Assembly (NCBI GenBank): GCA_002633005.1
Contig: NMRA01000539.1
Coordinates: 186,001-250,000, forward strand
DNA from: Phoronis australis
Lineage: Eukaryota; Animalia; Phoronida
Length of the DNA stretch: 64,000 bases
Reading direction: 5' to 3'
Both the position numbers and the translations under genes were made by a program. A model generated the notes under the pieces. It had not been told where the DNA came from. It saw only the letters and a list, made by a program, of their open reading frames with translations, and did no database searches. This document shows positions 1 through 28,300 of this stretch, piece by piece (within the stretch, counting starts at the first letter, position 1; every line of letters begins with the position of its first letter).

Positions 1-45
1 GAACTATTCATTGCAGCTTTCTTTAGAGAACATGGTCTATTACAG
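1..45 (+). CDS. 3' end of a coding exon (ELFIAAFFREHGLLQ, phase-0 donor); LMF-like, identity uncertain
   Basis: Open frame 1-45 followed by a consensus donor CAG|GTAAG. The peptide aligns without gaps to the end of the LMF2 penultimate exon in this window ([15 protein letters not shown]|GT, also phase 0). Only 15 codons are visible. Confidence 0.55.
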
Positions 46-3000
46 GTAAGCTTTTAATACTCATTGTTCGTTGATGGAGTGTAATTCAGACTGAATTCAG
101 GGGGTGTTTAATACATCTTTGGTTCACAAATGTTTGTATTTGAGACCCTCGAAGTTTGCATAGAAAACAGGTATTGATTGTAAGTCTGCAAGCATGCCTA
201 AGTTGATATTTGAAGTTGGAGGTTCATTGCAAATTTGTCATTCTTTAAGAGTATGGATAGCATATCCATGTCCATCATATCTCAATATGCGTTGGTCTTT
301 GCATATAAATTATTGAACAGTAGTGATTGTTTGGCAGCAGAAATCCCCTTTTCCGTTGTTTAGATTATTTGTAGCTATGATTTATTTCCTCTAGTTATTG
401 ATTCTTCAATGTATGGCATTTTGTTTATTATTGATGTAACCATGGCTGCCGTCTTCCGTAATGGCAAGTCTCAAGTATTGCGCTTCATACTCCTGGGAAT
501 GCATGTGCTTTGCATGTTCTTTTGATAGGAAACAAAAATACATTCATTTTTAAATGAAATTTTTAATGCTTTTTGAGTGTTAACCAATGCAACACAAACA
601 GGTGAGACAAGTGATCCAATGAATACGTAAATAAACGTGTCTTACATAATATGTGAAGTTCATTGAAGTTTTCTGTATTCCGCTTCACACCCATAACTGC
701 AGCACTGCCATCTATAGTTTGTCAAGTTAACTGTTGTAAACCATTGGTATTCAAATACTTCAACCTGTTCTAGCTAACAGTAGTTTTCCTTCTTTTATAC
801 CGTATGTTGTGTAATGCAAGAATTCAGCCAGACTAAAGCCGCAGTGATTTGAAAAGGTAGATGAGCATGATCAAGCAGGAATAGTGTAAAGGATCCAGAT
901 TAGGCTACAGAGATCAAATTGAGGATCTCTTAATGAACAATGATGGTGCTCATAATTACAGGCTTAGTCTCAATGGTTTCCAGGGTCTTGGTTCACCTGG
1001 AGGCAATACAGCTGCTCTGTAGTCACACACCATCTCTCGAGTGCACAGAAAGCTCAGAAAGTGACTGAAAGATTGACATGGTTCACATCTTGAATGTTAA
1101 TTCACAAAAGTAGCAAAAATGGTTTCCTTAATCCTGGACACTGGCCATTGTCCTACAAATTACGGGACGTGCTGGTAAATTTCAAGACAAATGTGATTGG
1201 TTGTTTATTAAGAAATGCTTTGAATGTCGTCTTAAATCAGGGCATTGCATTCACCACTATGTACCTTTGTCTGAAACTGAATATGGAAAATTAGCCACAA
1301 ATTTCACCTTACACATGAGGGACATCACCCATGTCTGGCTTAACAATCGCCTGCAGAATTTCCAAATTTTCACGTTTAACCGTCTACACTTGGATTCCTG
1401 CCCACCCCTATCTACTTGATCCAACACTTTCTGTAAAGCTCCTATGGATCTTGGTAAATGCCTAGTATCTCCTGTAAATTTTAGCTCCCAAAATATACAA
1501 AAGCTTTGATAATCAACAAAGTTTTATCAGCACCTGTACTCACCTGCTGTGTTTCATTTTACTCTTGCCGCACCAGTGTTTACCCATTTCAATGTTCTGG
1601 TAAACACGCAGCCCTGACAAAAACTTTCGCCCATGCTCTACTTCATGCCGTTCCCTGATATTTGAGTTCCTTAAAGCTAAAGCCCCCTGGGCGTTATTGT
1701 GGACAAGTGTGATTTCATGCCACTGAAGGTAATGCAATGAATTATATATTTTGATGTAGTATTTCATCAAAAACATAAGGGATCGTGTTCTGATATAAAA
1801 AACAACTTTCATCATATGGAGTATTTGCCACTCCTAAGCAGTATTATTGAGTTCATATCCTTCAAACTGAATTACGTAGATTGACATAAAACGCCTAGAG
1901 TATAACCCCCAACGGCAATGCTGCTTTGGCGACTAAAACTATGGTGCCATGAAAAGCAATTTATGTGAGCATGGCCTAAATCAAAGACAAAGTGATTTTT
2001 TCTAAGCTGGGAACAATTTCCAAGTCAGCCAGGTGTGATGGTAATGGGCCTGAATTAAAAGCTTGGTATTTGATGAAAGGCATGGATTTGTTGCCCTTTA
2101 AGGTTGCTATGCTTTCATCCATCTGTCAAAAAAGAGTGGATTTTGGTATCGAAGAATCAGTCACGACTTGTTTTGTGCTCTGATTGGAAGAGTTTTTTCT
2201 GGACTTTGGAAGAAGTGAGTGGTTGCTCTTGATCAGGCTTGGGGGGGGGGGGGNGGTGGGGCATCACACTCTTAGCCAAAGGCGAGATGACTAGAAATAA
2301 GGTTCTATGATAGCTAGCGCCAGATGCATCCATGTTTAAAAGGTTGCACAATAAATTAAGAATCAGATAGTATTGAATATCATTGAGCCATCGAAGATCG
2401 AAATAGTGTCATTTACATACGGCAATTCTTTGCTTATTTAGCATACAATATGGCCGACAGATGAAGTTCCATTTTGCCAAATTTCTCCACATAGATGAAA
2501 GTCAAGAAAATTTTAGTGTATTACTAGCATGGTTTGTGCAGTGTAGAGGTCATAAAACAACTTTTAGTAGATTTCCATTCTTTGGAAAATGGAAAAATGA
2601 AAATTAAGACAATCACTACGGTACTATAAAAAGTGATCTAATGATGGCCATATGTACTATCTGATAGCACGCTATTTCATTGACATATTTAAATGAGCAA
2701 TGGCAATCGTGTAAATGAGTGATCGCTGTACGATGGTCTCATAATTGACGAGTTTTATTGATAGAAAGTCCAACGCCAAAAATTAAATTGCCACTAAATG
2801 GATGGAGTACGCCCATGGTACACGAAAATTTGTGACTAACCTCAAAGTGTCGTGCAGTTCTTGATGTAAAATCTCACACAATATGGTGGACAGGTGACAT
2901 TGTATTTTCTCATTTTTTTCATAAATAATGCATAGTTCCAGAATGATGCTTTGAGTATCATAATAATGTGAAGAAGCCCTTTAAAAAGAAATCTGCAATT

Positions 3001-3462
3001 TTGGCAATTATTTTCATCGAAAATTGTTGAAATTTTTCGAAAGGTACTACGTATTGGGATACAGGAGAAAAGCATTCCTGTATAAAGACACAGATACATC
3101 GGGCATTCATCAATATTCTTGTTATGCATGTTTATCTCTTGACAACTGGTCAATAAATCCACTTACCTAAGAGTTCTACTGAGTTTTATGCATCGGTCAT
3201 TGTCCTATGGTATGAATCGATAATATTTTTAGCGTAATCTTCATTTTAAGATATAGTTATTCTACACCTATTCATGGCGGCCTGGTGGAATTTTATCTGG
3301 TTAAAGTTCTTACGAAAAACACAACAATAACAAATGTTAAACTCTACTGTTAGCCGAGCTCCGGCTTGGGCTCCTACTCGTATCTCTGTCACGAAATAAC
3401 TGACCTTTGAATTTTTTTCCTTTTAGTAAGATGTGATACTTGTGTGACTTATCTATCCTCAG

Positions 3463-3567
3463 GTTTTTTCACACTCCCAGATGCCATCCACAAACGGCTA
3501 TGAAATGCCACCTGTTAGGCTAAATAAGACCACTCACTGTGTGTTACATGACTCCCAGTTGAGCTAA
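3463..3567 (+). CDS. Candidate terminal coding exon (VFSHSQMPSTNGYEMPPVRLNKTTHCVLHDSQLS*) for the exon ending at 45
   Basis: Acceptor ttatctatcctcAG|G, 34 open codons in phase 0, then TAA. Followed by ~5 kb without recognisable coding exons and AATAAA signals near 8667 and 8814. No homology recognised. Confidence 0.3.
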   Translation, partial: VFSHSQMPSTNGYEMPPVRLNKTTHCVLHDSQLS

Positions 3568-6500
3568 GATATATGTACTTCTTATCTTAACCTCCATTGG
3601 AAGACTGCTGTGCCGTGACAACATGTTGACATGATCCAAACAACCTGTTTACAAAACTGTAAATAGTATCTCTAGGACATATTCATTTCTCTATACCACA
3701 ATTAAGTTAGTGAATTATAGGAACGCAGTGTTAACTAACATACCTGCTGAGTTTTCTGAATGTATCCTGATCTATTCATCTTCAGTCTGTGATTGACAGT
3801 GTCTCAGTAAAAAATGTCTGTACGTGGGTTAACTGAATATAACGGGCTGTCTCCACAGTACACCATTATAGCAAGTTAGACAGAAACAAAAATAAAAAAA
3901 ACATCATTTGATCAGTCGACTAATATGTCATACGAGCGGCATACAGCTCACATATTCAACACACCTGTTAGATCTTAGAACGCCTCTGAAACTTGGTGCT
4001 AGTTCCAAAGTTTTCAACGAACTCCTCGGTGAGTGCCAATCTGTTACGGCAGAATCCTTATAACACTGTTTCGATCCCCATCACAACCACTCAGCATTGC
4101 TAAAACCAAAAGTATACATGAAATAGGTCATTTCATTTACCTGACCTTGCTACCACACCTCACCACAGTCAGATGATCTCAGCATTTCTCCTGTACTGTT
4201 ATTTCTTTGTATTAACACAAAATATCTGATTGACTGGAACAGAATGTTGTAAATATACCAGCCAGGCATTGTGCTGACCCATGCCAGCATAGAAGTCTTT
4301 AGAAACCTGCCCACAGTAGGAAAACATCAACAGAATTCACTGATTTCTTTCTGTTGGTAGTACCAGTGAATGGAGCAGAATACCAAGGCTTAGTTTGGTC
4401 TGTGTTTGGTCAATTGACCACGGACAATAGACCATCTCTGTACTGAATGAAGATTCTGATAGAGTGTGTTTGTACTGGCTGTTTACATTCTAATATTGAT
4501 TAAACACTTCCCACAGCCCTCCTTAGTAGTGACAGGTAGCACAAGTCACTGGATTATTATTTCCCTGTCAAAACCCTAATTTCATTTGATGAAGAAATCT
4601 CGTGATTGGATTCTCGGCTCCCTGGTGTCGATTACTTATCCCACATTGTGAGCCAATTTTTTGGAATGAATTGCTTTTACACTGAGATATCCAGTTACTT
4701 TATAACCTTTTCCTGAGCTGTGTATTGTGTTTACACTTACATGATTGTGCAAAATAAAAAGAGCAGAGGTTTTATCGTCTAGTTTAAGACCCCTTAACGC
4801 AAACACGAAAACCTACTTTGTACACGAGAGACCCATGGTATCTTCTCCAGATTACGAACGCTTGAACATTATGACCACCAGAAAGTATGGCCAGTGAAGA
4901 TTGGCATTTTGAGCCCTTTCTATGAATAAACTCATAATCTCGCACCCAGTTATACTCCTTATCCCTTATTGAACAATCACGCCAAAACAACGCTAAAGCG
5001 ACATTTCTTCCTTTGGTTGTTAGTGATGCAAAGTGCGAGCAAAATTTGCACAGTGCCAAGAATGTCATTGTGCGCTTTAACCCTCCAAGGTATGCTAGAT
5101 CTGATCGATCACTTCATAATTGTTAAAATGTTGAGATAGTCTGTCTTGCCGCTCAGGTACATTACGTAAACTAATGACATGCCAACTGAGTAACCACTGT
5201 TTTCCCATAAGATGGACAAAGGCTGATCTGCTAGGCCGTAACATCACAAAGTAACTGATCTATCTTATCATAAAACAGCCTATCCTCCTTCTCATTATAT
5301 ATGAAAGAGCATTATGAGGTTGTGCCTGAGCAGACGTCTAATGAGCATTCGAATGCTAGTTTTGTTTCAGGGTTCTAAAATGCGTCTAAATTGTTGTAGA
5401 ACAACGCAATTATAGGAGTCTAAATTGAGTCCCCAGTGGGAGGTGATAAGTTCATGTGTTGTTCTATACCTGCGTGTCAATCATTTGTTTCCCCTCAAGT
5501 AGACTGTATAAACAATCGCCATGGCAACAGTTGTTATACTGAATTGCTCAATGGAAAGAGCCATGGGCTTTGGTTCACCAAGGGAGTTACCTTCTGTGTG
5601 TACGAGAAATGTCTCGTTTTAAGATTTATAGAAAGCTTGAAAATCGGTTATTATCCAAGGATTTTTGGGATTTGGTTAAGTTAGATTGTGAAATCCAAGT
5701 TAAAAGATTCTGTGCTTGACTAGGATCTAGAATTTGAAAGCATATTTAAGATGCTCTAGCTTTTCTAGCTTTGTTGAAAAGTTGTTTATGATAAACTAAC
5801 CAAAACATTCCAAGCCTGCAGTTTAGGAATGGATTTGGAATACAATTACTTGATTTACTAACATCTCAATACATTTTACTCCACATGTTCGTGTTCATTT
5901 TAACATCACACGTATTTCACAAGAAAATGGGGTTAGGTCTAGGAATAGTCATTTTGGATGTGGCCCTATCCATAACCAACCGTCTCTATGTAATAATGAA
6001 GTGACCACCAGTTTCAGTAGCTTAGCCAAGACTGAATAGCAGGCAACATGTTCAATCCTGCACCCTAATGGAAAACGGTTACCCCTTAGGAACACCAGGG
6101 TTCACTAGAATCAGCAGAACTCATAGCTTTTGACTGGCCTGTACTATACTATCCTTATGTTTTGTACCTGTTTGTCTTTGGATTATAACGCCCAATCCAT
6201 TAGCACAAACTGATAGTTAAGCAGCCTACCTCAATCCATGGTGAGCTCTTTTCCAAGTTGGGATTGATCTGGAATTTAGCCTTGTGTACAATCAGCTGTG
6301 TGATGATTGTATACCTAGTGGTATCAGATAGCTGTCTATTGATTCTTGATCCCCATGGTTGGTAACAACATTGTGCCTGTGTGAATGCATTGAGTAAGAC
6401 AGGCTGGTGGCAGGCCTGCAGCTTTCATGAATTTTGTAAAGGTGGGCGTTCATCTCAGTTTTTCTTGGCACAGCTTATTATAGTCTCAAACGGATGTCAA

Positions 6501-9495
6501 ACCTTTCTTAGTATGCTATATAATTTTTTATTGTATGGGGATGCTCCCGGAACTCAAAGTACAAAAGTTTTCATTGACAGTTCCTGAGAAATTTGCAAAA
6601 TATTTTGTTCACACGTCAAACATGACTCCAGAATTTTCCCCTCACTTGGCTTACTTTTTGAGTTACAAGCTCCAACCCATTGTAGCCCAAATCGATTCAA
6701 CTCGGCCTTTATTTCCGTTATCAGGACCGTAGGATGATCATGCAACAAGACGTTATTTTAAATCCATACACATATTAAACAAGTTCTTACTCTGTTTGCC
6801 CAGTCAATGTTTAAATGTCTGCCTACTGGCCGGTGTGACTTTTGGAACAGCCAAAGTCTTGCAATGGATATAAGCTCACTGTGCACGGGTTGATTTTAAG
6901 AGAAGTAATTTTCTAAAAGTGAATTCAGTTGTAAATTTTCCATAATTGTTCATAACACTTCATCGCTTTTCTTGCAAATAACAATAAATAACAATCCCTT
7001 AACCTGGAACTTGCACGCTAATTCCTTATCTTTATGGTTGCTTGATGGTCAAATTCGTTAGAAGCACACGATTGGAAAATGAAGTAGGTTGAAAATTGCC
7101 AGTTTTCTAGAACAAGTTTTGTGGAGAAAATGATGCTTCACAAATCACTGATCCATGTCCAGTAAGTATTGTGACGTGATCATACTACGTGATGCATGCA
7201 TGCCATATGAGCTCTCCAGGTATATCATAAGTCCAAAGGTCTTCTATTTGAAGATTTTTTTTTCGTTTTCGCATTTACAATTTGTCTGTGAACACAACTA
7301 CATTTTGTTTAGCGTAGATTATGTTAAAAAAGAATTGACATTTAGTTCCTGCTGTACATTATTAGCATAGTTTGGAGGGTGCACATCTTTAAAATGATTA
7401 GAATTAAGCTTTCACGTGCGACTCCCTAAGTATGACAAAGCCAAGTTGCGGGAATTGCAACTGTTTATACTTTTTATGAATTCTGTTATATATTGTTAGC
7501 TTTTGACCAGTTTTATGTTCTTAGAGAAGAGAAGTGCTTATTCTAAATCACAGGAATGTTAGTAGTGCGAAGTGAGGGTGATCTGTTCTTGGCATTGTTT
7601 GCTCTGATCAGATTTTTGTTGCTGACCTGGGCTAGGTTGAATAAATATAAAACTTTATTGCCTGATTGTTGCCTGGCAAAAAGAGGCAACATGATGTGTG
7701 ATACTTTGATGTCATTTTGGCTAACCAATACATGATTTATTGGGATCATGATCCTTGCTGTAACAGCATGTATGCAGCCTATGACCACATGAAATTGGTG
7801 CATAATACTGACTGATTTACCCTAGGTTGGCAATTATGCCATTGATACTAAAATTGACTTTCCACGCACATACTAGTGGTGACAATGCTAGCAGTCTTGG
7901 GATATCTCAAACTGGTAGCGAAAGTGACTCTCGCAACCATTGATCTTCTCGCATCACGCTGGCGTCAGTGTGGACAACCTGTCAGTGTGAACAGGCTGTC
8001 AGTTGACAAGAATCAGTGAGTTTCTTGCCCTATTTTCACTTGGCTTCTGTGGCTATTTTTACGAGTTTAAAGCTTATTCATTAGTTCAGTTCAAGTAACA
8101 GAAAAATGAAGTGACGCTATACTCCTTACCTTTCTGCTTGTTCATCATCCGCTCAATGGGAATTGGAGATAAGGAGGTCGTCCTTCATAGCAACGTCTTT
8201 GTTGCTAGGTCATGGTGGTGTGACACCTCAGACAAGGTGTATTAACTGTGCACCTATCTGTTTCAACGAGTTTACATTTTCCTTCCCCCCCCGAGATAAG
8301 GACAGGGTTTGAATTATTTATTTAATCATTATGTTATCTGATAGGAGGGCAGTAGGGTCATCCATCATTTAATGAATTGACTTCCACGAATTATGAATAT
8401 TTGTAGCGTTGTCTATTATGCGAAATGCATTTTAGTGTTTTTATTTTTTATATTTATATATATGTTTATAAACATTTCCAGTTGTCAGGTGCGCTGTACT
8501 TACTTTGCTAATGTGTAATGTTACAATGATATTTGAGTTTGGTGCATTGTAATTATTTAGTTATTTTGCACAAAATTAATTGCAAAATTCTCTGTTTTGT
8601 AAGTGATCAAATGTTAACTCGTTGTTTATGTCGTTTGTATATAGTAATAACCTCGCTAACATAAGAATAAATATTGGGAATATTTTTGACTGTTTTGACC
8701 GTAAAATTTCACTTGTCCATCGTAGTACATACAGAATCAGTGATTTCATAAACGCATGTAATGGAGTTTTAACGATATCGATGAATGCGTGACGTCTTGC
8801 ATTCCACCGCATAAATAAAGTCAACGGAGCTTGTTAAAAGCTGGGCATAGTTAAAAAGCGCAGCATGCAAAGGAGTGTGATGAATTTTATTCATGTTTGT
8901 TGCTCGTGTGGACAAGTGCCTGTAATTGGTAAAATGATTTTAGCTCGTATTTTGTACCCATGATGGGGTGAGAGAAACTACTGGATAATCCAATTGTATG
9001 GTAAAATCTTTCCAATTTCGGACAAAAACAATTGGCAAAATTGTCTTTTTATCATTTTCTAAGGCTTTCTTCAATTGTTATCCAGAGTTTTAAAAAAATG
9101 TGATGGTAGGCATCATAATAATCTTGAACATTGTAAAACAATAATTTTGTGGAATATATTTTATATTAAAATGATAAAATGAATAAAATTTCAACTATTA
9201 GCCACATTGTGTCCTAAATTGGTGAGGTTTTACCGCACAAGATTATCTACTGGTCGAGCATTTACTGGAGGTGCCAGAAAATCACAGGCCTGGCTAATTC
9301 CGTTCTAAACTTGAACTGCATCAGTTCGTTTGTAGGTTCACTCTCAAAAAAAATACAATATCTAATATAAAGAACATTTTGAGTCTAGTTTGATAGCATG
9401 AATTTGTTCATTATTTCATATTTTGCACAGGAGATTAGAGAATGCAGCTTTGGGTATATTTATGTATAACTCATCAGAACTGTTTTTTGTTTCAG

Positions 9496-12400
9496 ATCTT
9501 TTTGATGATCCTAATTCTACTGACGGGAAACTACAATTTCTTTAACTTGCTCACATGTATATTGTGTCTCCCTCTGTTGGATGATAAGTTCTTTGGGAAA
9601 CCTCACTATGGTAAGTTGAGAATTTCCATACTCAGCTGTATCCATGGTAATTGTAAATGTTAGTTGTGAGTTGCCTGACCCTCAGCATAACATCAACTTG
9701 CCAAATGCGACCTGCAAAATACTTGGGAACTAAGGTCGACAGAAGAAGAAAACCTGGTATTGGCGGGTTTCAAAAGTTCTGGCATCCACAATTTATGCAT
9801 AGTTTGTAACAGCCAAAACTGAAATAAACCAGATAACTAATTTTCAAAATAGCCGCATCATATTGAAATTCTCTTTCCCACCAGACAAAGATCAAGTTTG
9901 TGGTAGACAGGCGCTGAGCGCCACCTACAGTAATGCCGACGGGAGGTTTCAACTGATGGTATCAATGGCATTTTAATACCTTTCCTGCTAGGATAATGCT
10001 GGCAAATTTGCACAGCTGTGTGGTAGTGTGTAGTAATGGATTATGAAAAATGGCAAACATTTTGAAATATCCAGGGATGAAGGACATGTTACATACATTT
10101 CTCACAGCAAAGAAGAATCCACAGCTGCGTAATCAGTGGTTGTGACTGACAAAGCGGGAGAATTTCAATTCCAGGCGATGTCAAAAGGCTAAAAATTATA
10201 AATTTGTCAACTTAGCCTAATAAAAATGAGAGAGGCTGACAGTGGAATTTATTCCTCTGTAGCAATTGGATTTCTTGTCCGCCAGAGATAAAACGGAAGT
10301 CGCTTTTGCACTCTCATTACTCCAGGGATCGCTAATATGAAAAGTGCACTATTGAAGAATAGTAAATGGCAGCCAAGATGCACCTGAGATCACCCAGACA
10401 CTGCGAAGTTTGAGTGTTCCACCAGTTCCCTCCTCGAGTCCGATATCTCACACAAGGTCATCTCCTGAGACAGAAGCAGACGATCAACACACATTACCTA
10501 CACTTGCATGACTAATTGGTGAACCATTCTGATTATTGACAAATGATTCCGACTCTTGTCTCTTTACTCCATATTTCGAGTGCGTGTTCAAATATGTGGG
10601 ACATTTTTACCAGGTCACCATACAAAATCTGAGTTCTCAATATATATCGAGCCCCAATTCATGTTTTGGTTATTTTACACTCGCCTACTTTTGCTTAGTT
10701 TCTATTGACAAAAATAAGTGATAGGTTGATTTTCAAGAAACAAAATGGTGACTAGCCATGTGGGACGGGTAACTTAGTGCCACCTGGCTGTACCAGGAGG
10801 TACTTCTTCTCAGCGGGTGGTGCTGGGGAACATGTTTGACATCATGAACAGACCATTTTACAGAAAAGTGACATGACAAGATGTATTCTAAACAAAAATG
10901 AAGTTGCCTTCTTGTCCTCTAGAGGCCACTAGTATGCGGTCTCACATACATGTTTGCCACGTTGCTACTTAAATGTCTCCAGTTAGAAAGTTGATACCTA
11001 ACAGAATAGGATTTCAATTGGTGCTGTGAAAACACTGACCTCCTGCTGAAATGTCATGTCTGATCATTTGAATTGTGTGCTCCATAGAGTGGGGTATTTT
11101 AGTCTCAGAGAAGTTTATTTACTTGGAATGATGAGAGAGTTTAATGGTCAGTTCAGGATTTTGTTCTTTGCAGACAAAGACTTTTTCGAGACTCTTCCAT
11201 ATGTCGGTCGCCTGTGGAAGCTGCTCAAGGTGCTCATTGTCTTGGCAACCATAGCGTTGCTAACCTACCTGAGTGTAAAGTGTTTTGATCTCAGACTGAA
11301 CAATAACTTCACAGTGTATTCTCGCGTGGGTGAGTTGCTGGAATATTGAAAATGAAATGAAATTCACAGGCTTCAATGCTTTTAATGTCACAAGTTGTTT
11401 TCCCAAAGGACAAAGGCATTGCTGAAAAAATGGACTAGTTGAATGTATTGCCCAAGGATGGGGTGGTCTCCTTGTGGGGAATCCTCTGAGTCACATTGCC
11501 ACTGCTGTGCAAAGAATGACATGGCTTCTTCAGTCTTTGCCAGTATACCTGCTGAGTATTCCCAGCAGTCAGTTTGATGTCCTGCTGTGGCTGTGTTGAC
11601 GGACATGCTCTTTTGGTAGAATTCCTGTGAGTAATAAGTAATTGCATTTGAGATTTAGAACTTTTTAAATTTATGTAGGATACTAGGAAATGTCCGAATT
11701 TGGCTAATGATCGTCAAAAATAATTGGCATTGTATGAAACTTTGACATACTGGGCTTTATCCACTGTTCTCCAAGGTTTTGTGAGGACTAGTTTGTAAAT
11801 TGTTCAACTTTTGCTTGATGGCTATCAATTTTATGATTGTTTAAGAAAACAGACAACAGGGTTTTTCAGATATCTTCTCTAGCATCTTCACCAAATGATG
11901 TTTAGTCGAGTTGTTGTTGTTTTGCAGTGAATGTATTTTCTTTGCTATATTTTACTAAAAGATGTGGTCAGGTGATCCAGTTCATGACTGATGAAAAGTC
12001 AAAAGTCAAATTCACAGACTTTCTGCTTTCAGAAAATATTATTATTTTTATTAGTATTTTGTGTAGATATTTTGCTAATTGCACATAGACTTGTCAATAA
12101 AATTTCATGTAAACTTAGTGTCTTGTTGACCGATTTCCTGTGCATGCTCGTAATTTAGTTTGCAACTACAGTTCTTTCACGGATTGCCCTGGTGTTGTTT
12201 CTCTATTAATACGATGATGACATGTTTATATTTATTTAAATTTCAGCCTTTTCTCAGAGGGAATTTCAGGACTTTGTATCAAAGTGTCTCCCTGTGACAG
12301 TGTGGATAGGGGCCGTGTCATTAACCTGGGAAGTTATCAAAGCTCTTGCAAGGTGATGCTGATGTCTTGGAAAAAATGGATTTTGGTTCAAAGTTTTAAC

Positions 12401-15400
12401 TCTTTCACTGCCACACATGCCTTTCAGGGAGTTACCTGGTCACTGCCAAACTTGCCAGTCGACGAGTTGGGTACTTTCTCATTCTTGATCCAGTTAATCC
12501 GCAATTTCTTGGGAGATGACTACTACAGTTTATCAGCGTTGACAAAATATCAATTTTTCGATGTTTGCTTTGCACTTTTTATGAAGAAACTTTTGTGAAA
12601 TTCAACTAAATAAAGTTCTACTTTTCTGTCATATTGCCTCATAAATATATCATTGTCATGTGATACGGCACTGCCTCGGACAAACGAAGTACTTATTTAA
12701 TTAGTAACAGTTACTTGAACCGGGGGTCCCGCATTTTGAGAACCAGTTTTCTCTGCTAAATCACAGGCATCAAACTGGTTCTCTAAATTCGGTACCCCTT
12801 TATGTGACTATTGTCTTTCTGCCTTAGGATTCTATCTGAGAACACCAGTTTCTTCTCCAAGTCTGCAGCTCTGGTCAGGTGTCTAGCAATGTCCGCCGTG
12901 GCGTATGGAATGTTTAGCATTAGTTTGGTAAGACAATGAGTGATATTGACGTTTGGGTCTTGCTTCTCGTTTTTAGAATACGAAATCCTGGAGAAGGAGT
13001 AGAACCTTTTATTGCATGGGCGCACCCAGGGGGGGGGGGCTCGGGGGCTCGAACGAACCTCCCAATTTGACGAATTGGGCAAAAAGTAAACGAGACAAAA
13101 GTCCGCAGGAATTTGGCGCGTATGCACAATTGGTAGGCCTGGACCTAATAGCCCCATTTTTTTAGTCTTCGTTGATTTTTTTCAGTAAAAGGTCTGCATG
13201 TTGAAGAATTCGAGCCTCCCTATGTTTTAGGCTGGGGGCGCGCATGTATTTTCCAAGACTTACTTGTAAATTGATCGACCAACTTATAATTGACTTCATG
13301 CCCACTTCATTACAAATTGTAGACTCGTGAGATGAATCGTAGTTTGAGAACTATCTAATGTGAAAGTTATCATTACGCATAATTTCGTACAATTTTAGAC
13401 GAGTTTCAATTATTTAGGTCACAATGTTCATCATTTCAAAATTCTATTCGCTTGTTTAGTATGATGTTTCGTACCCAATCAAAATTGGCAGTTCAAAGAG
13501 TAATGCGTGCCTGTGGTTATATTGTACCTTTCTGAACAAGCAGCTTAGAGAACAGTTTCGAGAATTTCAGGAGTTGCTGACGTGATGGTACAGTGGTTAA
13601 AGTAAAAATGTCTTTATGGAATTGATTTTTGTTCTTGATTTGTCATTACTTTCTTGCAGCTAATTCTGAGGTCTACGGCGTGGTTATAGAAGCATGCTCA
13701 AATCAGTTTTATAGTAAAATGTCATCATTTTTGAGATATGACATGGCGTAATTTTCTTATTTTATTTTCAGTAAAATATGAGTTGTGCCAAATGAATGTT
13801 TTTATCATTGATATGCTCTGCAAAAATATAATTACGTCATTGGACAATGTTTTGAGATGTTGTAGGCATTCACAGCAATGTTGAGTATTATTGAAAAAAG
13901 AAAAATATCAATTTTGGCAATATGTTTCCGAAATGGACAAGAGTTTGCCATTCACTTGTTCCTTGGCTTAAAGATGCTATGCCTCATTAAAACTGTGAAG
14001 AATAAATTTGCAGCAAGCACCACTTTGTGACTTACTGGAGAACTTTTTGTACAATTATAATAAGGGAAAGAAACTGTTTGACGAAATGTAAATAAAATGC
14101 AGTTTTAAAGAAAGCAACACAACTGACACTTAAAAACAAGTGTGAACATAAAGAAAATCCTACTAATTCCGACTATTACGCTATGATTATTTGATAGTGA
14201 AATGAACAAATAATAAAAATTGGGTTATCATGTTTTATTAGGGTAACAATGACATATTACCATACTCCTTTACACAAAAATGGTCTCGCAAAATGAGACT
14301 TTCTTGAGATTGTGTTAACTGATTCTCGAATGGTTTTCGACACACCGTAAGACCCGGGGTTATTTGTAAACCAGCGCTTCATTTGCAGGTTCGCAATTTA
14401 ATAAGACACAGCATCTTTAAATCCCGACAATTAATGTATTGTAACAAATTCCGTCACTATGTATTTCCAGGTTCCACACTCAGCTGTGGACCAGCAGTAC
14501 AGAAATAGACTTCCTCCACTGGTCCATAGGTGGCATGCCAACACCCAACTGTTTCATCTAACAAGTTCTTATGGCCTCTTTAGAAGGTTAGACTTCATTT
14601 GTTTATGGCACATTCATACTAGTTGACATTGGGTGGCAAATGGTGTACTTTTGTATCAAGTGTGGCAAAAACGTTTTCCAGCCATTATTAAAACATTTGT
14701 AAGTACAAATTACTTGATTTCATTTTTGTTTTTGGTAGGATTATGAGATTGAGTTTTAGTTATGAAACAAATGAGATTATCTTGTCGTTAAAAAAGCTGA
14801 ATTGTATTGTTTTAAAACTAAGTCTAAGTGAACTCATAACACAAAACATAAAGATGGCAGATGGTTTTCTCAATCCCTAGTTAGTCTTTCAGTATAATAA
14901 GTATGTTAACGAAAACAAGTAATGTATGTCTCAGAGTTAGCTTTAACTAACAGTACAATTGCTTAAAATATAAGTCTTGTGACTCATTCAGTACATTTTT
15001 GTTGGCCTACTACAAAACATTTTTTCACAAAGAAGTGACTGAGTTATTTCATAATTAAGAACAACTTGGGCTAATGGTCTGGTTAGTGGCTATTCCTAAA
15101 CGCCTTATTCATATCCATGGAATAATGAAGAAAAGTCACCTAAATTTCAAAGTCATTTTATTCACTCTACAAGAAACTCATAAATAAATATGTCAATATT
15201 TAAAAATTGCACAATCATTGTTCAGTAGTTCACTCTACAAAAAACTGAATAAATAAATATAACCAAAAGCATAGAAAAACATTGCACAATCTTTGAAAAC
15301 GCTAGTACTTAAACTTAATACACTCCACATTACTTGTTGAAAATTAAATTTGATTTAAACGTGATTTCAAAGCTCGATATAGAGATGATTTTCATGGGAA

Positions 15401-18400
15401 AATTTCTTTGTCCAACCTTTCGCTAACCTTATGTTTGTTTTTCAAAAAGTTACTTATAGCGTTAGTTCCTCGTGAATGTTGACGTGATTTTCTAACCTTT
15501 AAAGTTTTGCATGAAACACTATCTTGTAACTAACTTATGTATGAAGTGCAAAGTGATTCCTACTAAATATCTATCAATAAGCATTTGAACTCCATGGACA
15601 GACTTATACTGAGACCTACCATTCTAAATGAAAGACTGTCTATCTGAGTGTGTGGATAGATTTAGTGCTTTGTCTTGGGAAAAACTGTCAAAAAAGATTA
15701 AAAATTAAACATTTTTCACAAATTTAGGAACCAAAATTGTACCTTGTTAATTTTATTTCTCAGTTATCTGGACATCTTTTGAGCTGAAAGTTCTGTACTG
15801 CCACAGTTATTTATGCTTTCATTCTGCAAGTCACTTTAGTGTTAATGAAATATTTTTAAGACATAAAACAGAATCCAGCATTTGCCATTACTATGCAAAA
15901 CTAGTCTGAATGTGCCAGCGTCATCTTGTGTGTGTTTCTTAACCTTCCATTTCCAGTTTGTTTGTGTACTTTAGGTTCCACTGTCTGAACTTGACTGGAG
16001 TTTTAATCAGTCCCTCTCTCCACTTGTCACGAGTCTCCATGCAAAACTTGACACCTATCAACTGACAAGCTCCTATGGGCTGTTTAGAGTGTAAGCTACT
16101 TCAGTCTTTTGGTCATAGTTAAGTGAATTGTGCTGCCTGTTTTGTTATTTTCCTTTTTCCTTTTGAATTTGTACTGATATTGCTTCTCACAGTATGCCGT
16201 GGTGGTTGTCTCTTGGTTGCCTTGACAATCTTGTTTCTCACTATGGTAACAGCTTTACATTTTAGGGCATTTTGCATTTTTTCACCTTGCTGTGTTAGTG
16301 TATTATGCCATCAAGTTATCATGAAACATTGTTTTTTGTTTAAAATTTTGAGTGCTTTCAGCTCATATGTGATGACAAATTTGAGCAAATATGATTGCAA
16401 AGAGGATATTTACCATACAGAATGTCCTCTTGATCTGGGTCATTATTGCCGTGCCTTGTAAAGTTGCCAACTGACTATGGTGCCACTGCTGTCACTAAAA
16501 CAAAGCGACTAAAAAGCCTATTTGGGTTGCATGCTTTGTATTTTGTATCATTTATCAAATTGTAATTTTAAAATGTGTAACAAAGTCAACAGTTCATTCA
16601 AGATTATTTGTTTGTTGTTACAGGATGACTGGGGTTGGTGGTAGACCAGAAGTCATCGTTGAGGGCAGCAACTCACTGGACGGCAAGTGGAGAGAATACG
16701 AGTTCTTCTACAAGCCAGGCAATGTGTCCAGGGTGCCACCTATTGTTGGTAAGACAAACTGTAAGAGGAAAATATTGGCCACTATGTTGCTGTTCAATTC
16801 TGTTGTTTTGGACACTCCTGTTTTATGCGCATAATGTAAACCATTGAAATGTGTTGATGTATTGCACATAAAAATATTGCAACCTTTCTTGCTCGTAGAA
16901 CTGGTTAAAATCACTATGGTACCATTGACTTATGTCTAGCATGGCTCAGACTTGCTCATATTTACGATATTCATGACTAAATTCCAGTGCACAAGTATGA
17001 TGCAAGGTGTCAATAGACTGAATGTTTTTCGTGTCAAATCATCTCAGTCTGTCTTCAGGTAGAACCAAAGTGCAGCTAGAAGGTTAACAAGTACTGTACA
17101 ACAACTGGTCACAAACATGCTCCCTTAATTTATGTCCTTAGTTATCTCTATGCGTGCACCTGTACTGGTAGACATGAATATGGGGATGAGTTTGCATTGA
17201 GCTTGGTGTCTGGCAACTAATACTCTCAAGGTTTAACCAGTTGCATGACTGTTGTTAGTCTGAACAAAACTAGTTTTCCCAAGTATTTTTACTCAAATTA
17301 GCATATTTATGATACAGCAGTTCCACGTGTCATTAAATGATGTAATACAATTAAGTTACTGTTTTAAGTCGCAGAAGCAGTTCAGTGTCATGAATGTATA
17401 TTGGTGTTGTGATAGCTGATTGGTTGATTAACGTTTCAGCGCCTCACCAGCCCCGCCTTGATTGGCAGATGTGGTTTGCAGCCCTTGGCTCCTATCAACA
17501 CAATCCGTGGTTCTTGAACCTAGTCTACAGGTTGTTAACAGGTAATGGAAAATTTCCATTAATGATATGTATGACCTTATCGATTACTTTAGTCATACAT
17601 TTAGCCATCTACAAAACTGGTAAAAAGTATATAGTTTTTGAAAGTAGAAAGCCTGTTGAATTTGATGTTTATCCTTATACCAATGTGCCACGAATTGCGT
17701 CACGTGATCATGTCTGCTTAGTAAAATTCAGCAATAAAGAAAGCTACATTCATAGAAAAGCCACAGTATTAGTAACACGACTAAATTTTGTATGATATAA
17801 ATGTTCAAGATGAAATCTCAAAAATGTTGTTGAATTATTTTAATTATTTCCTTTTTTTGTTTCATGCTACATTTGAATTTTTTATTAAAGTCATGGAAAA
17901 GCAGATCATTTATAAAACAATAACATTGTATTGTTGAATAGTGCTTAAAACATGGTGTCTGAAAGATTATAAATCTAATCAATGATCACTCATCCCTATT
18001 TTGTAATCCACATAATCTGAACTTTTCTCTGAATACTAGAAAAGCGCCTCCTCAAATCTGTAACAGAAATTTGAAACACTCATCCCATCACAGCTGCACG
18101 TCCCCACTATCCACATTACATTGACTGCCCCCTGGATTTCTCAAAAAAATTTTCTCCCACCTGCTACTTGCTGAAACAAAGAGGATCTTGTGGTTTATGA
18201 TGGCATTCATTACCCACCTCCTCTGAGTAGCCTGCTCAATGCCTTAGTCAACGTTACTTTGTAAAGTTTTCAAACTTGTTCCAAACTTATGAGCTTCACC
18301 AAATAGAAACCGCTCCCAGAAGAGTCTACGTGAGTCATAATCAAGTGATCAATACAATGGTGCCCAGCCACATAGCCTAAGCATGCATGGAGTACAGTAA

Positions 18401-20560
18401 CAGGTCATCTGTCTACTGTGTCAAATGTATTTGGTTGTTAAAGATCAACTATTTGTTCTATAGATTTTTAAATTTATGACTTGTGTCTGGGCGACTTTCA
18501 AGTTGTCAGTAGATTAAAACAGGTATTACTAAATAATTGCATAAGGTTGGTAGCGAACACATAGATTAATTCTTGTTAACACAACCAAGTGAAAATGCTG
18601 TACCTTGACAGTTTTGGCTACTCACAGCAGCCATATTCGGAAGCTATTGGACACTAGGTGGCGAGGTGATGACACTGTTCCAAATTTTAGACAATTTATA
18701 CCCCCCATAGTCTCTGTTCATAACTGAGCAACTTTTTTCACCTAAATAGACTCTCTAATCTGTCTAGATCTCAAGTTATTTTCTATGTAATTAACTGGGA
18801 AGACGCTCGTCCTGTTGAGTCCGAAAATAACTTGAGATCTAGATGGATTAGAGAGTCTATTTAGGTGAAAAAAGTTGCTCAGTTATGAACAGAGGCGATG
18901 GGGGGTATAAATTGTCTAAAATTTAGAACAGTGTCATCACCTCGCCACCTAGTGTCCAATAGCTTCTGAAGATGGCTGCTGTGAGTAGCCGAAATTGTCA
19001 AGGTACAGCGTTTTTGCGTGGTTGTGTTAATAAGAACCAATCTATGAGATTAAAACAGTGTTGAGGTGAATGCTCACTTTTACTTGCAGGTCAGCCAGAG
19101 GTACTTGAGCTGATAGCTCACAACCCGTTCCCTGGCAAACCACCCAAGTACATCCGAGCTCAGCTATACCACTACTACTTCACCAAGCCATCTGGAGAGT
19201 GAGTACAAATTATCAAAGAGTGCTGCGTGCATGTGATACGAGAACTAGGCAGGAGATTGTGTCCTTTTTGTAGTTCTTCACTTGTTTTGCTTTACAATAA
19301 GTGTGTAGTTTATCTAAGTCTGATTGACTTGCTGGAAGTAATGGAGATTTTGCCAAATGTTGTTTTGTAACATCTAAGCCTAGGGTTAAGTTTTTACTCA
19401 AAATTGACATTTTCTGTTCTCCTTTCAAACTCGACAAAATTAACTAATTTTTCTGTGCTCAAGTATGTTGTGGATTATAAAAATGAGTGTCTAGCCCAAA
19501 TTCGCACTTTATGACCCCTAAATTGTAAACCTCAATAGATTACTGTTAAAACTTTCTAGCTATAGTGTGCATGACGCCGAACTCAACTGGTTCAGTAATT
19601 ACTTATTAAGTGTTATCTGTTTCGAGGCCAGTGACATTGTCTGTGATGTTTAACAAATGCCATCTGTTGTTGTCATGGTCTTTAGGGAAACCAGAAAAGA
19701 GTGTTTTGAATAATAGTGGTTACATCCACGTATGTTTCAGAAAGAGGAGAATGAGAAAAAGTAAACGGTAAAGATCGTGAAATAATTTTTCAGTTTTTGC
19801 GTTCAATTTGTTTTCCTTCTCTTTCGTTGTCATTTTTCATTACAGTTGATCACTGCATATTTTTAATGCTTTATTTAATGTTTCTGTACCTTTGAACATT
19901 TAAAAAAAATTAAGTCAGTGTTCCTGTGTGAAGTTTTGCGCTTTTTACATTTATTGGCTGTTTTCAGGACGTGGCCTGTCAAGTGGTGGAGACGGAAACA
20001 CGTTAAGGAGTATCTGCCCATACTAGCCAAGGATGAGCCGTCCTTTGTGAATTACCTCAAACAGTACAACATTCTCCAGGTGAACAGTTCGAACCATCTC
20101 TTTGTCACTTCTATTCGTCATACATTTAATATTTAGGTTTCAAAGAGAACTGATGAATTTCGTCAAACTTCATCGGTGTTTGGTGAAACTCTGAAGGAAA
20201 TGAGATGAACGGTCATTAACCTGAAAATTAGCTGAATATTTTTGTTCCAAAATTTGATGATTTTCATGGAGAGGAAATTTCATGATTTTCTTTTAAAGAT
20301 TTCTTTACTTGTATATATAAGCACCAGACGTTTACAAAGTGCGTTTGTCTAACAACAATTCTTAACATGATCAATGTATAAATGAGGTCAATTTGTTTTT
20401 TAAGGTCAAGTTAAAACCAAGGTCAGATGCCAATTGGCTTGAGCAAACAGTGAGAACAGTTCGCGAGTACGTTGGCCAACCTGAGGGATTTAAGGCACTG
20501 TCCATGCTGTTCACTTCCTGCCTTATTGTCAAAGTCCCTTTGCACTGGATTTTTGGATAG
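9496..20560 (+). CDS. LMF2: Lipase maturation factor 2, 3' part (~398 aa; 5' exons lie upstream of the window). Exons 9496-9610, 11174-11329, 12247-12352, 12828-12927, [14471-14586 or 15975-16090], 16624-16748, 17440-17541, 19090-19198, 19968-20079, 20405-20560
   Basis: LMF2 family motifs [97 protein letters not shown]....EYLP. All introns are GT-AG with matching phases; stop TAG at 20558-20560. Confidence 0.95.
13015..13246. mobile_element. Short non-autonomous DNA element (MITE) with CATG(G/C)GCGC..CCCAG terminal inverted repeats
   Basis: Termini catgggcgcacccag / ctgggggcgcgcatg; flanks tattg / tattt (imperfect 5-bp TSD). The same termini occur at 48435-48598. Confidence 0.65.
14471..14586 (+). 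CDS. LMF2: LMF2 mutually exclusive exon A ([39 protein letters not shown])
   Basis: ttccAG|GTT acceptor, AG|GTTAGA donor, 116 nt, phase 0 to 2; joins 12927 and 16624 in frame. Confidence 0.9.
15975..16090 (+). CDS. LMF2: LMF2 mutually exclusive exon B ([39 protein letters not shown])
   Basis: actttAG|GTT acceptor, GT|GTAAGC donor, 116 nt, phase 0 to 2; homologous to exon A with no indels or stops. Confidence 0.88.
18523..19046. mobile_element. Truncated Penelope-like retroelement in inverted-repeat configuration (GIY-YIG C-terminus pseudogene plus pseudo-LTR)
   Basis: ~220-bp inverted arms 18560-18783 / 18822-19046. The + strand from 18784 reads [29 protein letters not shown], then after a frameshift [13 protein letters not shown](W/*)NSVI, the typical PLE endonuclease C-terminus. 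A 12-bp direct repeat agattaaaacag flanks it at 18511-18522 and 19047-19058. Confidence 0.85.
18960..19005 (+). ncRNA. Minimal type I hammerhead ribozyme motif of the Penelope-like element
   Basis: CTGAAGA (18966-18972), stem II GGCTGCT-gtg-AGTAGCC, GAAA (18991-18994), GTC cleavage triplet (18997-18999). Stem I is tagctt/aaggta with one mismatch; stem III is vestigial, as in PLE hammerheads. Confidence 0.72.
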
Positions 20561-22017
20561 TTCATTAGTGATTTCCCACACGTTTAGAATTTTGCTTAAA
20601 TGATTTTGATGACTGCAGTGTTTAACGTGTTGGCTCGTTTATTTCATTTTTCAATAAGAAGTTTAATTTAAATTACTAGGTCTTCTGTGGACATGTGCAA
20701 TCTTGAATATAGTGCTTAAGTGGATATAAACCCGCCTTCTGTCACAAGAACTAACGTTTTCAATTTGACCACTTACCATTTTGAAATAGGTCGCAGAATT
20801 TTCCCAAATCTAATTGTCTCATTTCTGGGCTTGAAAAAATGAGAGTTGATCGTTGCTAGACACCAGGGTCAAGTTCAATAACTGTCTCACAGCTAGAAAC
20901 ATCTAGTAGCCAAAATTACATGCCCTCATTGAAAATACAGGGTAACGTCTCACTATGTCTTGCTTTTCTAGCGGGACACTCGCTTTATTGAAATCTACAA
21001 TCATGGCTGGTCACTTCGTGCAACGAGCACGATCTCCAATCGTCATTTTTTTCCAAACCCAGAAGCCAGTACTCATCAGTTACAAACAAGTTGAGAAAAA
21101 GTTTGATAGCGGTAAATGTCCATGTCCCATTCTGAAAAACAAATTTCAATTTCTGTTTGAATTCAGTTTCCCAAATTTTGAAGACTGGCCAAACTCTGGA
21201 GAATTTGTACCATAAATGAGTTACTCGATTTGACAGAACACCGACTTGAAGCAGTTTTAAAATATTATCAGCATAGAAATGTAAGAATTAATTTCAAAGA
21301 TGAGGTAGTTTTGTTGCGATTGTGTCTTAAACAAATTTTAACACATTTTTCTACGTTTTTGTATCATGAAACGAGTTTTTATGGCCCTAAGTAACAACTA
21401 TCGACCATTCTGAATACCACAAACCGTCCTGTTTTAGTCTATTTGTGCCTTGTTATATGACCGATGCACTTATGGATTCTTCTTATTAATTAGCACGTCA
21501 TATAACATTATTTGCATTCTGGTCCTAGTTGACATTGTGCTTTATCTGCCCATTATCTCGTCAACAGCGACTGGAACAAATCTACCAATCTTTGTTTTTA
21601 CAAGGGCTTAGATGCTCAAATGTTTACTAGTGACAAACTGCACTTCAATGACGCTCCTGTCTTTGAACTAGTGAAATATACTTGCTACCATTTTAAACCA
21701 GGCAGATTTTAATGTGAACACTTTTCGTGTTGGTTCACTAGTTGTAGATAACAGATTGGGCTAATGTACATTTTTAATTCTCGCCAATAAGTTTTTCAAA
21801 TTGCAATAAAATTGAATTTCATCTATGCTATAAAATTGATGTTTGTTATTCCAAATACTGGAATTTTTTTGTTATCTATACAATGAAGAATGTAGATGTG
21901 TTTCACATGTCTATCAGATCTGACCTAATGGAATGTTGAATGTGAGTTAAAGTGCTATTTCTGAAACCTTTTACAATATCGTTCACTCACCTGTTAACAG
22001 TCCGCTTGTATGTAATG

Positions 22018-25300: not shown

Positions 25301-28300
25301 GTTTTATGATCAGACACTGTACACATTTAGTCACGTTGAGCAGTGCGGCCAGCCATAAACAACATGTTCCAACCTAAGTTACCCTCATACTCAAATGTCT
25401 GTCCCATACATTGAGCTACATGGGCCGCCATACAGAGACATGTTCTCAACAACCGTTTCGCCATTTCCGTCAACCTCTGTCGCATGCACTCACCCGCTAG
25501 ACAGCCGTACAAAAACACATTCAACATACCTTCTTCCAATTCTCCACAAACTGTGATTCCCATGAGTTGGTCCATATTACCAGCCATACAATGACATGTT
25601 CTCACCTTCCTTCTTTCCATTCTCCATCCACTGTCAATCCCATGCATTGACTTGCGTGATCTGCTAGAACTCCTTCATCCACAAGTTGCACGTGCTATGC
25701 ACTGGCCCATGTGGCCAGCCATACAAAGACGTGTTCACACCTACCTTCTCTCCATTTTCCAACGACTGTCTTATCCCATGCATTGACCTGTATGGCCAGC
25801 CATACAAAGACGTGTTCCCACCTACCTTCTCTCCATTCTACATCAACTATCTATCCCCACGCATTGACTTAGATGGCTAGCCATACAAAGACCTGTTCCC
25901 ACCTACCTTCTCTCCATTCTCCATCAGCTGTCTATCCCATGCATTGACCTGCGTGGCCTGCTGTATAAAGATGTTCCTGCTCATCCAACTCCTTCATCCA
26001 CAAGTTGCACGTGCCATGCACTGGCCTATGTGGCCAGCCATACAAAGACATGGTAACACCTACCTTCTCTCCATTCTCCATCAACTATCTATCCCCACGT
26101 ATTGACCTAGATGGCTAGCCATACAAAGACCTGTTCCCACCTACCTTCTCTCCATTCTCCATCAGCTGTCTATCCCATGCATTGACCTGTATGGCCAGCC
26201 ATACAAAGACCTGTTCCCACCTACCTTCTCTCCATTCTCCATCAGCTGTCTATCCCATGCATTGACCTGCGTGGCCTGCTGTATAAAGATGTGTTCCTGC
26301 TCGTCCAACTCCTTCATCCACTTGTTGATATTGTCCTCCAGCTGTTTATACGTTATGGTGGTGGTGGTTGTTGGGGTCACACCAGCTGTTGACGACGAAC
26401 TGTAAACACCAAGTTTCAAAATAACACAAGATGGCCGAATGCTGCCACTAGCTCAGTGGACAAAATGTTTTGTTTGCAAAACAAATCAATCACTAAAAAG
26501 CCTAACAAGAAGAAATCAAAGCAATGTGGTTCTCGCAAAGCACAAAACGTGACACCAGCGAGCATTCTTGGTTTGAGCAAAACATGAGCATTGTTAATAA
26601 ATGTGAAACAATAAGAAACAGTGTTCATGTGAAAAATCTTGTACTCTAGATAATACAGCAGATCCTGTTCATTACAAAGATCAAGAGAGCTGGGGCTTAA
26701 ATTACCCACAGGGACCAAAGGTTTACTTCTTGAGCCTGGTTTCCGGAAACAATGACCTGTCAGTTTTTGTCAAAAATCACTTCATAAAGTTATTTTTTGA
26801 CAGATTTCTGGTTTCTAACAGCTTTAAATGTTGAGCCAGGAATGAAACAAATTCAGAACCACCAGCAGCAGAGCTGGTTCTCAAGTCATATCATTTGCTC
26901 ACAAATTTCAATGCGAGTGGCGACAACTTTGCATTTTACCAAACGTCACTGGATATTGGAGGGGGAGGATCTCACAGAAAATGAGTCACTACGTCATGCC
27001 ATCTCCAGGAATGCACCCAGACATCTCAAACCATGGTTTTAACCACCTTAGAAGCTGAAGAAGCGACATAGCCATCAGTTTACAGGTATGTTGTTGTACA
27101 CTATTTCAAGAAATCTACAGCAGACCTATAACTGAAAAATATCCCCGCTTCATAAGCCACAACTCAGGATGCCCCAAGACCTTAACTACTTTCTACAGCT
27201 CGGTGTAATATAAACATAGTCCATAACCTCATCCAAAACGAACTGTGATCACGATAAAACCTCTTCAGTTTAGGACACAATACAGAATATTTTTCGTATA
27301 GTACACGAAACAACAAATAGATGCTTTATCTTTTTAAAGTAACATAGCTATCATCAAACAATACTACGAGAAATTGGGACATTAAAAAAAAGGTCAGTGG
27401 TGTTTGAAATATGAAAAACTCAGTATTGGCTAGTACTTTTGTCCACATTGCCAAGATTTCACCACACTGAACAGCTGGTTCTGTTTGGCAGTCTGACTTT
27501 CAGTCAAAGATCCCCACACGTATTAATAAACATGTAATACCTGACAATTACCTTGTTATTGTTGTTGTTGTTGTTGTTGTTGTATTCTGCGATAAACTCG
27601 TAGTCGTTTTAGTTGACGCAACAAATGGTGCAGATACGGAGCCTAAGGGAATAGTCAAAAAGCATTGTCACCACGCAAGTTTTGTTTAAAGGTATTTAGC
27701 TCTTCTTCAACACATGAAAGAACAATNCCTCATCCAAAACGAAGTGTGGTCACGATAAAATCTCTTCAGTTTAGGACACAATACAGAATATTTTTCGTAG
27801 AAGACACGAAACAACAAATAAATGCTTTATCTTTTTAAAGTAACATAGCTATCATCAAACAATACTACGAGAAATTGGGACATTAAAAAAAGGTCAGTGG
27901 TGTTTGAAATATGAAAAACTCAGTATTGGCTAGTACTTTTGTCCACATTGCCAAGATTTCACCACACTGAACAGCTGGTTCTGTTTGGCAGTCTGACTTT
28001 CAGTCAAAGATCCCCACACGTATTAATAAACATGTAATACCTGACAATTACCTTGTTATTGTTGTTGTTGTTGTTGTTGTTGTATTCTGCGATAAACTCG
28101 TAGTCGTTTTAGTTGACGCAACAAATGGTGCAGATACGGAGCCTAAGGGAATAGTCAAAAAGCATTGTCACCACGCAAGTTTTGTTTAAAGGTATTTAGC
28201 TCTTCTTCAACACATGAAAGAACAATTTAATCACACAAATAGAAGCACGTCAAATAATACTTTTTCGCGCCATAATATGTTGCTGCAAGAACGCATCAGT

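Follow-up and report, generated by a model that had tools for sequence, protein, structure and literature searches.

An ancient, probably mutually exclusive exon pair in the LMF2 gene of Phoronis australis and other lophotrochozoans

The LMF2 gene of the phoronid Phoronis australis contains two homologous exons, A and B, lying in tandem between the same neighbouring exons. We examined them within a window of 64,000 nucleotides (assembly GCA_002633005.1, contig NMRA01000539.1, positions 186,001 to 250,000, forward strand; coordinates below are those of the window), and we hold it to be highly probable that they form a functional and ancient mutually exclusive pair, which arose by duplication near the base of Lophotrochozoa. 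The gene was identified as LMF2 by its Pfam LMF1 and LMF1_C domains and by profile and protein searches, in which animal LMF2 proteins were closest. Only its 3' part was found. The 5' exons (residues 1-244 of the homologues) were absent from window positions 1-9495 by tblastn; either more than 9 kb of intron precedes the first exon found, or the assembly has split the gene. The gene model consists of the following features:

9496..20562, plus strand: 3' part of LMF2, supported by tblastn, Pfam, RNA joints and the open frame
12828..12927, plus strand: constitutive upstream exon, ending in phase 0 and coding for the end of a predicted membrane helix; AG/GT sites, RNA joints into the exon and out of it to A
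14471..14586, plus strand: alternative exon A, first copy, ending YGLFR-R; 116 nt, spliced reads
15975..16090, plus strand: alternative exon B, second copy, ending YGLFR-V; 116 nt, intact sites and frame, class residues of mollusc and nemertean second copies; no spliced read seen
16624..16748, plus strand: constitutive downstream exon d, Pfam LMF1_C positions 11-50; RNA joint
9496-9610, 11174-11329 and 12247-12352, plus strand: further LMF2 exons of the same gene model
17440-17541, 19090-19198, 19968-20079 and 20405-20562 (with the stop codon), plus strand: further LMF2 exons of the same gene model

Coordinates and translations of the pair agree with the original prediction, made from the sequence alone: both exons are flanked by AG and GT, run from phase 0 to phase 2, and share exons 12828..12927 and 16624..16748 as neighbours. 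Since 116 nt is not a multiple of three, inclusion of both exons or of neither breaks the reading frame, as had been anticipated. In the ten-exon model with corrected boundaries, the first stop is codon 399 of 399 with A alone or with B alone, whereas joining A to B brings a stop at codon 228 and skipping both brings one at codon 166. These premature stops lie 473 nt (A+B) and 427 nt (skip) upstream of the last junction.

The two copies have diverged considerably. They are identical at 66 of 116 nucleotides and 19 of 39 amino acids, in line with the expectation that about half of the residues would differ with no indels or stops; of 38 codons compared, 10 are the same in both copies, while 9 carry synonymous and 19 non-synonymous differences. 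The motif LTSSYGLFR is kept in both, with synonymous differences in five of its nine codons. When 50 random substitutions were put into A, the motif survived in none of 20,000 trials. A hidden Markov model (HMM) of 22 homologous segments, run against 2,908 stop-to-stop pieces of the window, matched only A (E 6e-18) and B (E 7e-17), with the next piece at E 0.91; a third copy in the window is thereby excluded. The 300-nt flanks of A and B resemble each other no more than shuffled sequences do, and an assembly copy or a recent duplication is therefore ruled out; the only Ns in the window are far away. The claim of an old duplication under selection thus holds, and same-length isoform pairs in many lophotrochozoans, described below, support it as well. 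The swap had also been said to switch the start of the C-terminal domain. The exon does touch that domain, but the wording was too strong: only the last ~10 residues of A and B fall inside LMF1_C, nine of them are identical, and most differences lie in the segment preceding it.

Next, we looked for the pair in relatives. Protein searches were made with exon d and with the full-length alignment (the best 120 proteins listed for each), and 30 clusters were opened, 17 lophotrochozoan and 13 other (11 named non-lophotrochozoan, two unnamed). Isoform pairs differing in this 39/40-residue segment were present in 14 of the 17 lophotrochozoan clusters vs none of the 13 others, which comprised sponge, cnidarians, echinoderms, amphioxus, lamprey, arthropods and the two unnamed clusters. 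The pair is found in bivalves (Ostrea edulis, Crassostrea virginica, Magallana gigas, Ylistrum and four Mytilus species), gastropods (Pomacea, Patella, Aplysia), the chiton Liolophura, the cephalopods Octopus and Sepia, the brachiopod Lingula, and the nemerteans Lineus and Tubulanus. In Octopus, three versions of the segment exist, both in O. vulgaris/sinensis and in O. bimaculoides. Each form in the Sepia cluster is represented by Logan contigs, 2.2-2.6 kb long and with complete open reading frames, which we infer to be spliced RNA. Evidently, the pair is older and of wider occurrence than the original prediction supposed.

Tandem exons were met outside protein databases, too. Our metagenome scan gave 12 loci, five of which (L002, L003, L004, L006 and L008) carry an LMF2-type exon, while no LMF2 exon was present in the remaining seven. 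The genomic contig L004, close in sequence to annelid-like proteins, bears two tandem 116-nt copies with AG/GT sites, in the same order as in the window; L003 and L008 stop shortly after the first copy. In a tree of the constitutive exons, from which the alternative segment was left out, the window falls within a lophotrochozoan clade (99/91), where it lacks a close sister. Searching by words with the A+B alignment yielded nothing among 21 candidates, and among those examined of the 43 matches of a representatives search there was no closer relative with the pair. Proteins containing two copies were absent from the opened clusters, chimeric ab initio models excepted; such models in Tegillarca and Lamellibrachia have the order first-then-second, as in the window and L004.

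Several observations on LMF2 of these relatives deserve mention in their own right. The commonest form differs by lineage: the Logan members of the Sepia cluster (P0213) have the V-type on 104 and 19 contigs vs the R-type on one, whereas in the oyster cluster (P0009) the R-type prevails. The third alternative exon of Octopus (P0056/P0173, P0167/P0172) has a degenerate motif, YGSLER, and a chimeric Sepia model (entries P0317 and P0318) carries a piece resembling it; in both Octopus and Sepia the V-type exon has an extension of 13 residues. Tegillarca possesses two adjacent LMF2 gene models on one contig (P0004/P0006), one of them being the chimera of first and second copy. Lingula (P0020/P0131) shows a second same-length isoform swap at residues 199-248, upstream of the gene part present in the window.

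Comparison of the copies between lineages points to a common origin. We set classes by the last residue (R or non-R) and dropped this residue from scoring. Under these conditions 15 of 16 pairs matched other lineages in the same orientation, and cross-lineage similarity within classes (59.0 and 66.9) exceeded that between classes (53.2). Among 128 lineage-level flips (eight lineages, window and L004 included, lineage pairs weighted equally), the observed labelling ranked first; a smaller test with six lineages, before the window and L004 were added, had given 4 of 64. Second copies have K at position -16 in 11 of 14 cases, D/E at -14 in 13 of 14 and Q/E at -11 in 12 of 14. First copies have D/E at -14 in none of 14 and H/K/R at -11 in all 14. 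Exon B of the window, with K-16, D-14, Q-11 and terminal V, belongs to the second class; exon A, with N, Q, H and R, agrees with the first class in its last residue and at -14 and -11. The class residues of B together with the first rank among 128 labellings make it likely, from these comparisons, that the duplication is ancestral to Lophotrochozoa and took place near the base of the group. The single exons of outgroups combine D/E at -14 (31 of 38) with terminal R (30 of 38), so the two copies appear to have divided the features of the ancestral exon, A keeping its terminal arginine and B its acidic residue at -14. The observation that B is more acidic and that only A ends in R proved to recur in relatives, where net charge is higher in the R copy for 13 of 14 pairs, the remaining pair being tied. 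The NQS glycosylation sequon of B, proposed as a functional feature, did not survive: any sequon occurs in only one of 14 other second copies, and at a different place.

The use of both exons in P. australis itself is a separate matter. RNA was mapped to positions 11000-17700 from three raw runs of one study, 18-19% of each having been read (~5.1 Gb), and from one contig set; joints were counted at a threshold of 3 reads. Splicing of A is directly visible: junction 12927>14471 is covered by 0, 2 and 4 reads in the three runs and junction 14586>16624 by 10, 8 and 2 reads plus one contig, 26 junction reads for A in total vs 0 for B. Of the five junctions named in advance as diagnostic, these two were seen, and 12927>15975, 16090>16624 and 14586>15975 were not listed in the three runs. 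Neither A-to-B joining nor skipping was listed at the 3-read threshold, in samples where B is itself unexpressed. Mapping narrowly on B gave 0, 2, 0 and 0 records, the two being a single unspliced read pair reaching from the intron into B. The proposal of two mutually exclusive LMF2 isoforms is consequently borne out by the isoform pairs of relatives and by splicing of A, but not by use of B in this species.

Several points weigh against the pair being an ancient either-or switch that still operates here. Clusters were selected partly because their names said 'isoform', and the isoforms at NCBI come from automatic modelling and are considered here irrespective of their read support. Single forms were found in Dreissena, Haliotis and one further lophotrochozoan cluster, and the animal genomic loci L002 and L006 carry one copy only. 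No joint into or out of B was detected in the ~5.1 Gb of RNA or in the contig set, which puts the upper 95% bound for its use at 11-14% in the sampled RNA. Lingula pairs in the opposite orientation; window A scores about equally against either class, so that the class signal comes mainly from B; and the arginine switch is not universal, as both copies of L004 and a B-like exon of Haliotis end in R.

Some of these facts would fit a pair that is ancient and functional elsewhere, with B being a silent relic in P. australis and LMF2 using A only. The 0 spliced reads of B against 26 of A agree with this, the single forms of Dreissena and Haliotis indicate that loss may happen, and the exon-side donor bases of B (AGT) are off consensus. 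We regard such a relic as very improbable. B has preserved its length, splice sites, frame, motif (with synonymous changes only) and all four class residues, whereas in the flanks no similarity beyond background is left. Three runs of a single study supplied the RNA, and a low share is to be expected of one form: in the oyster cluster (P0009), all 11 listed full-length Logan proteins (15 of 82 members were listed) are of the first, R type, a second-type isoform being on record nonetheless. It is very likely that B is functional despite the lack of a spliced read, and likely that A is the major form here and B a minor or tissue-restricted one. Exon duplication could also have occurred independently in several lophotrochozoan lineages, with similar residues reached by convergence; in MRP, independent exon duplications have reportedly been found in several lineages. 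The class signal resides in only 33 residues, Lingula and window A behave as described above, and the further duplication in Octopus together with the swap at residues 199-248 in Lingula reveals recurrent exon duplication in LMF2. Even so, we consider this explanation unlikely, given the excess of same-class over cross-class similarity, the labelling that is best of 128, the first-then-second order common to the window, L004 and the chimeric models of Tegillarca and Lamellibrachia, and the absence of two-form clusters among the 13 other clusters opened. A single duplication, whose products are still used alternatively, remains our preferred reading.

How might joint inclusion of A and B be avoided? 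The intron between them offers a candidate structure, composed of the following elements:

14606..14642, plus strand: predicted duplex arm I, starting 19 nt after the donor of A
15879..15917, plus strand: predicted duplex arm II, with its end 25 nt upstream of the adenosine taken as the putative branch point of B
15939..15943, plus strand: putative branch-point motif of B, TTAAC, from a motif scan only

The arms are complementary, forming stacked helices of 11, 7, 3 and 11 bp (~32 bp). Pairing between the initial 80 nt and the final 150 nt of the 1,388-nt A-B intron is predicted at -53.4 kcal/mol, a value matched by 1 of 1000 dinucleotide shuffles and the strongest among the 10 introns of the gene (next -37.5 kcal/mol). 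The duplex ranks second of 10,296 tile pairs, and its mean pair probability is 0.95 in the fold of the whole 1.4-kb region. Derivation of the arms from a common repeat was rejected; they are not repeated in the window and attract almost no repeat-derived RNA reads. A competing docking/selector pair was not found, the best partner of each arm being the other arm (-46 vs at most -40 and -37 kcal/mol). Provided that the duplex does form, and that 15942 is indeed the branch point, the effective distance from the donor of A to the branch point of B is 19 + 25 = 44 nt. Donor-to-branch point distances below ~50 nt are too short for splicing. The duplex would thus bring the two sites within ~44 nt and sterically block joining of A to B, and transcripts with both exons or with neither would be destroyed by nonsense-mediated decay (NMD), the two together giving exclusion.

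The odds seem to us slightly in favour of the predicted duplex helping exclusion in this species by blocking direct A-to-B joining. The duplex was discovered post hoc, in a scan (seed E 0.011), and nothing significant corresponds to it in the A-B intron of L004, where 176 of 1000 shuffles were as strong. Frame surveillance by NMD could suffice, the duplex being an inverted repeat formed by chance or left by a transposon, and this possibility is a substantial one, if short of an even chance. Such surveillance follows from what is established about NMD (PMC6071210, partial text); the exon length that is not a multiple of three and the stops of both wrong forms, more than 400 nt before the last junction, suit it well. 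Chance, however, does not readily account for three more stacked helices continuing in register past the duplex seed, nor for the precise location of unrepeated arms, with few repeat-derived reads, at either end of this intron. Moreover, all three exons of Octopus together would stay in frame, judging their length from the protein, and NMD would be insufficient there.

To see what the swap could change in the protein, we used the AlphaFold model of an oyster second-type isoform (pLDDT, predicted local distance difference test, 93.6). The exon corresponds to residues 404-442, comprising the end of a long helix, two short helices and a loop that runs into the C-terminal beta domain at its first strand. 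In LMF1 this domain is lumenal according to the available part of a review (PMC11526315), which mentions LMF2 once in that part. YGLFR and MTG belong to residues at least 97% conserved. Confidence of the loop is high only in the whole protein (pLDDT 84-96 vs 54 when the C-terminal fragment of a homologue is modelled in isolation), which suggests that it packs against the membrane domain.

In its predicted model, LMF2 shares the overall fold of GGCX, the vitamin-K carboxylase. Foldseek returned GGCX in all top 15 rows (E 0.003-0.034). VIA gave 15 GGCX entries at Z 12.6-14.4 with the next protein at 5.6, and GGCX was the only match with Z of at least 8 among 48,161 chains (Z 11.4, root-mean-square deviation (rmsd) 7.5, 293 aligned). 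Atlas provided a weak lead to an HTTM-named cluster (score 0.79). Identity between GGCX and LMF2 is ~10%, with rmsd 4-7.5 A, and when the PDB was searched by sequence, neither exon d nor a 129-sequence profile matched any LMF or GGCX relative. In GGCX, linker 391-404 following transmembrane helix 9 is membrane-embedded and gives Tyr395 and Met401 to the reaction centre (10.1101/2025.02.09.637231, seen in part). Tyr437 and Met443 of LMF2 have the same spacing, by which the R/V position would sit beside the methionine. As a lead, the end of the exon is likely to be near the reaction-centre linker of the GGCX-like fold; invariant K178, Y437 and M443 are positional candidates only for GGCX-like catalytic residues. 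The exon-to-GGCX register is the one suggested by Tyr-Met spacing, and this correspondence is weakened by the isolated C-terminal model, which has no clear fold match (Foldseek best E 0.31; VIA best Z 3.8) and meets GGCX with a Z of no more than 2.1 (model 40 to chain 399), six residues off the Tyr-Met register.

Swapping A for B would replace both short helices as well as the residue just ahead of the invariant MTG, in a loop predicted to pack into the membrane core. We put forward, with somewhat less than even confidence, that the swap alters a loop in the GGCX-like core and that the isoforms would differ in handling of a ligand, client or partner, not in glycosylation. A bolder idea, which we find doubtful, is that LMF2 is of the vitamin-K carboxylase fold and an enzyme or ligand-binding protein not yet recognised as such, and that its reaction-centre loop (Arg vs Val/Thr/Ser beside the Met401 equivalent, with the preceding helices) has been switched through mutually exclusive splicing since the lophotrochozoan ancestor, a switch that in this species would be enforced by a duplex collapsing a 1.4-kb intron.

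Other features of the window were noticed as well. A MITE-like (miniature inverted-repeat transposable element) long inverted repeat at 18590-19050, within an LMF2 intron, was spotted by eye. Intronic repeat fragments at 12720-12790, 13015-13240, 13890-14290 and 17630-17660 are matched in part by numerous RNA reads that originate at other places of the genome, and 13003/13203 form the strongest local inverted pair. On the minus strand, 25712-26297 is an 81-bp tandem array of 7.3 copies, which repeats the 3' end of an exon with its GTAGG donor ~6 times into the intron; the peptide of this exon resembles what we take to be NUP62.

LMF2 is a protein of little known function. An either-or exon that molluscs (with three versions in octopus), a brachiopod, nemerteans and annelid-like worms have all retained marks a segment tuned by selection and supplies natural variants for direct comparison of isoforms. 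The GGCX fold match turns LMF2 function into a testable question about a cofactor pocket, the exon ending on an invariant motif that is likely to line it, and the predicted duplex offers a compact case, testable in a minigene, in which RNA structure would imitate a short intron. The isoforms have already been deposited as unnamed X1/X2 models; it is the recognition of a conserved switch that is new, not the sequences.

In the literature searched, which left most subscription journals and supplements outside, we found no description of the LMF2 exon pair, nor a link between the LMF and GGCX folds, which may be in print or in family databases. Among known systems, exon 17 of Drosophila Dscam is reportedly a two-exon cluster in which RNA pairing is combined with steric hindrance, and is said to have been tested by experiment, whereas the LMF2 duplex is predicted from one genome and was not found in a distant relative. 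On all testable features, the LMF2 pair is a tandem-duplication mutually exclusive exon pair. It shares with this class, as far as described in the accessible part of PMC6071210, homologous exons of equal length and phase, frame-breaking co-inclusion and a candidate RNA structure; it differs in that no docking/selector pair was found and the geometry suggests a steric block. Alternative oxidase of oyster (PMC5589949, partial text) likewise has molluscan isoforms from a duplicated exon, the minor form becoming dominant under stress, but its exon 10 is terminal and reported from one species, while the LMF2 pair is internal and common to several phyla. GGCX (10.1101/2025.02.09.637231, partial text) is the best structural match, with a loop after a membrane helix leading to a lumenal beta domain; it is a carboxylase, whereas the sources consulted give LMF2 no known catalytic activity, and the two have no sequence-profile match. 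The closest functional analogue, as far as such a comparison reaches, is the pair of pore exons of invertebrate NALCN (PMC3557258, seen in part), again a deeply conserved exon pair in a membrane protein, swapping a charged residue at a conserved motif. The NALCN pair is absent from vertebrates and its use is tissue-biased in a snail; the role of its switched residue, in the selectivity filter, is known, whereas in LMF2, where the pair was seen only in Lophotrochozoa, the role of the residue is deduced from a predicted fold.

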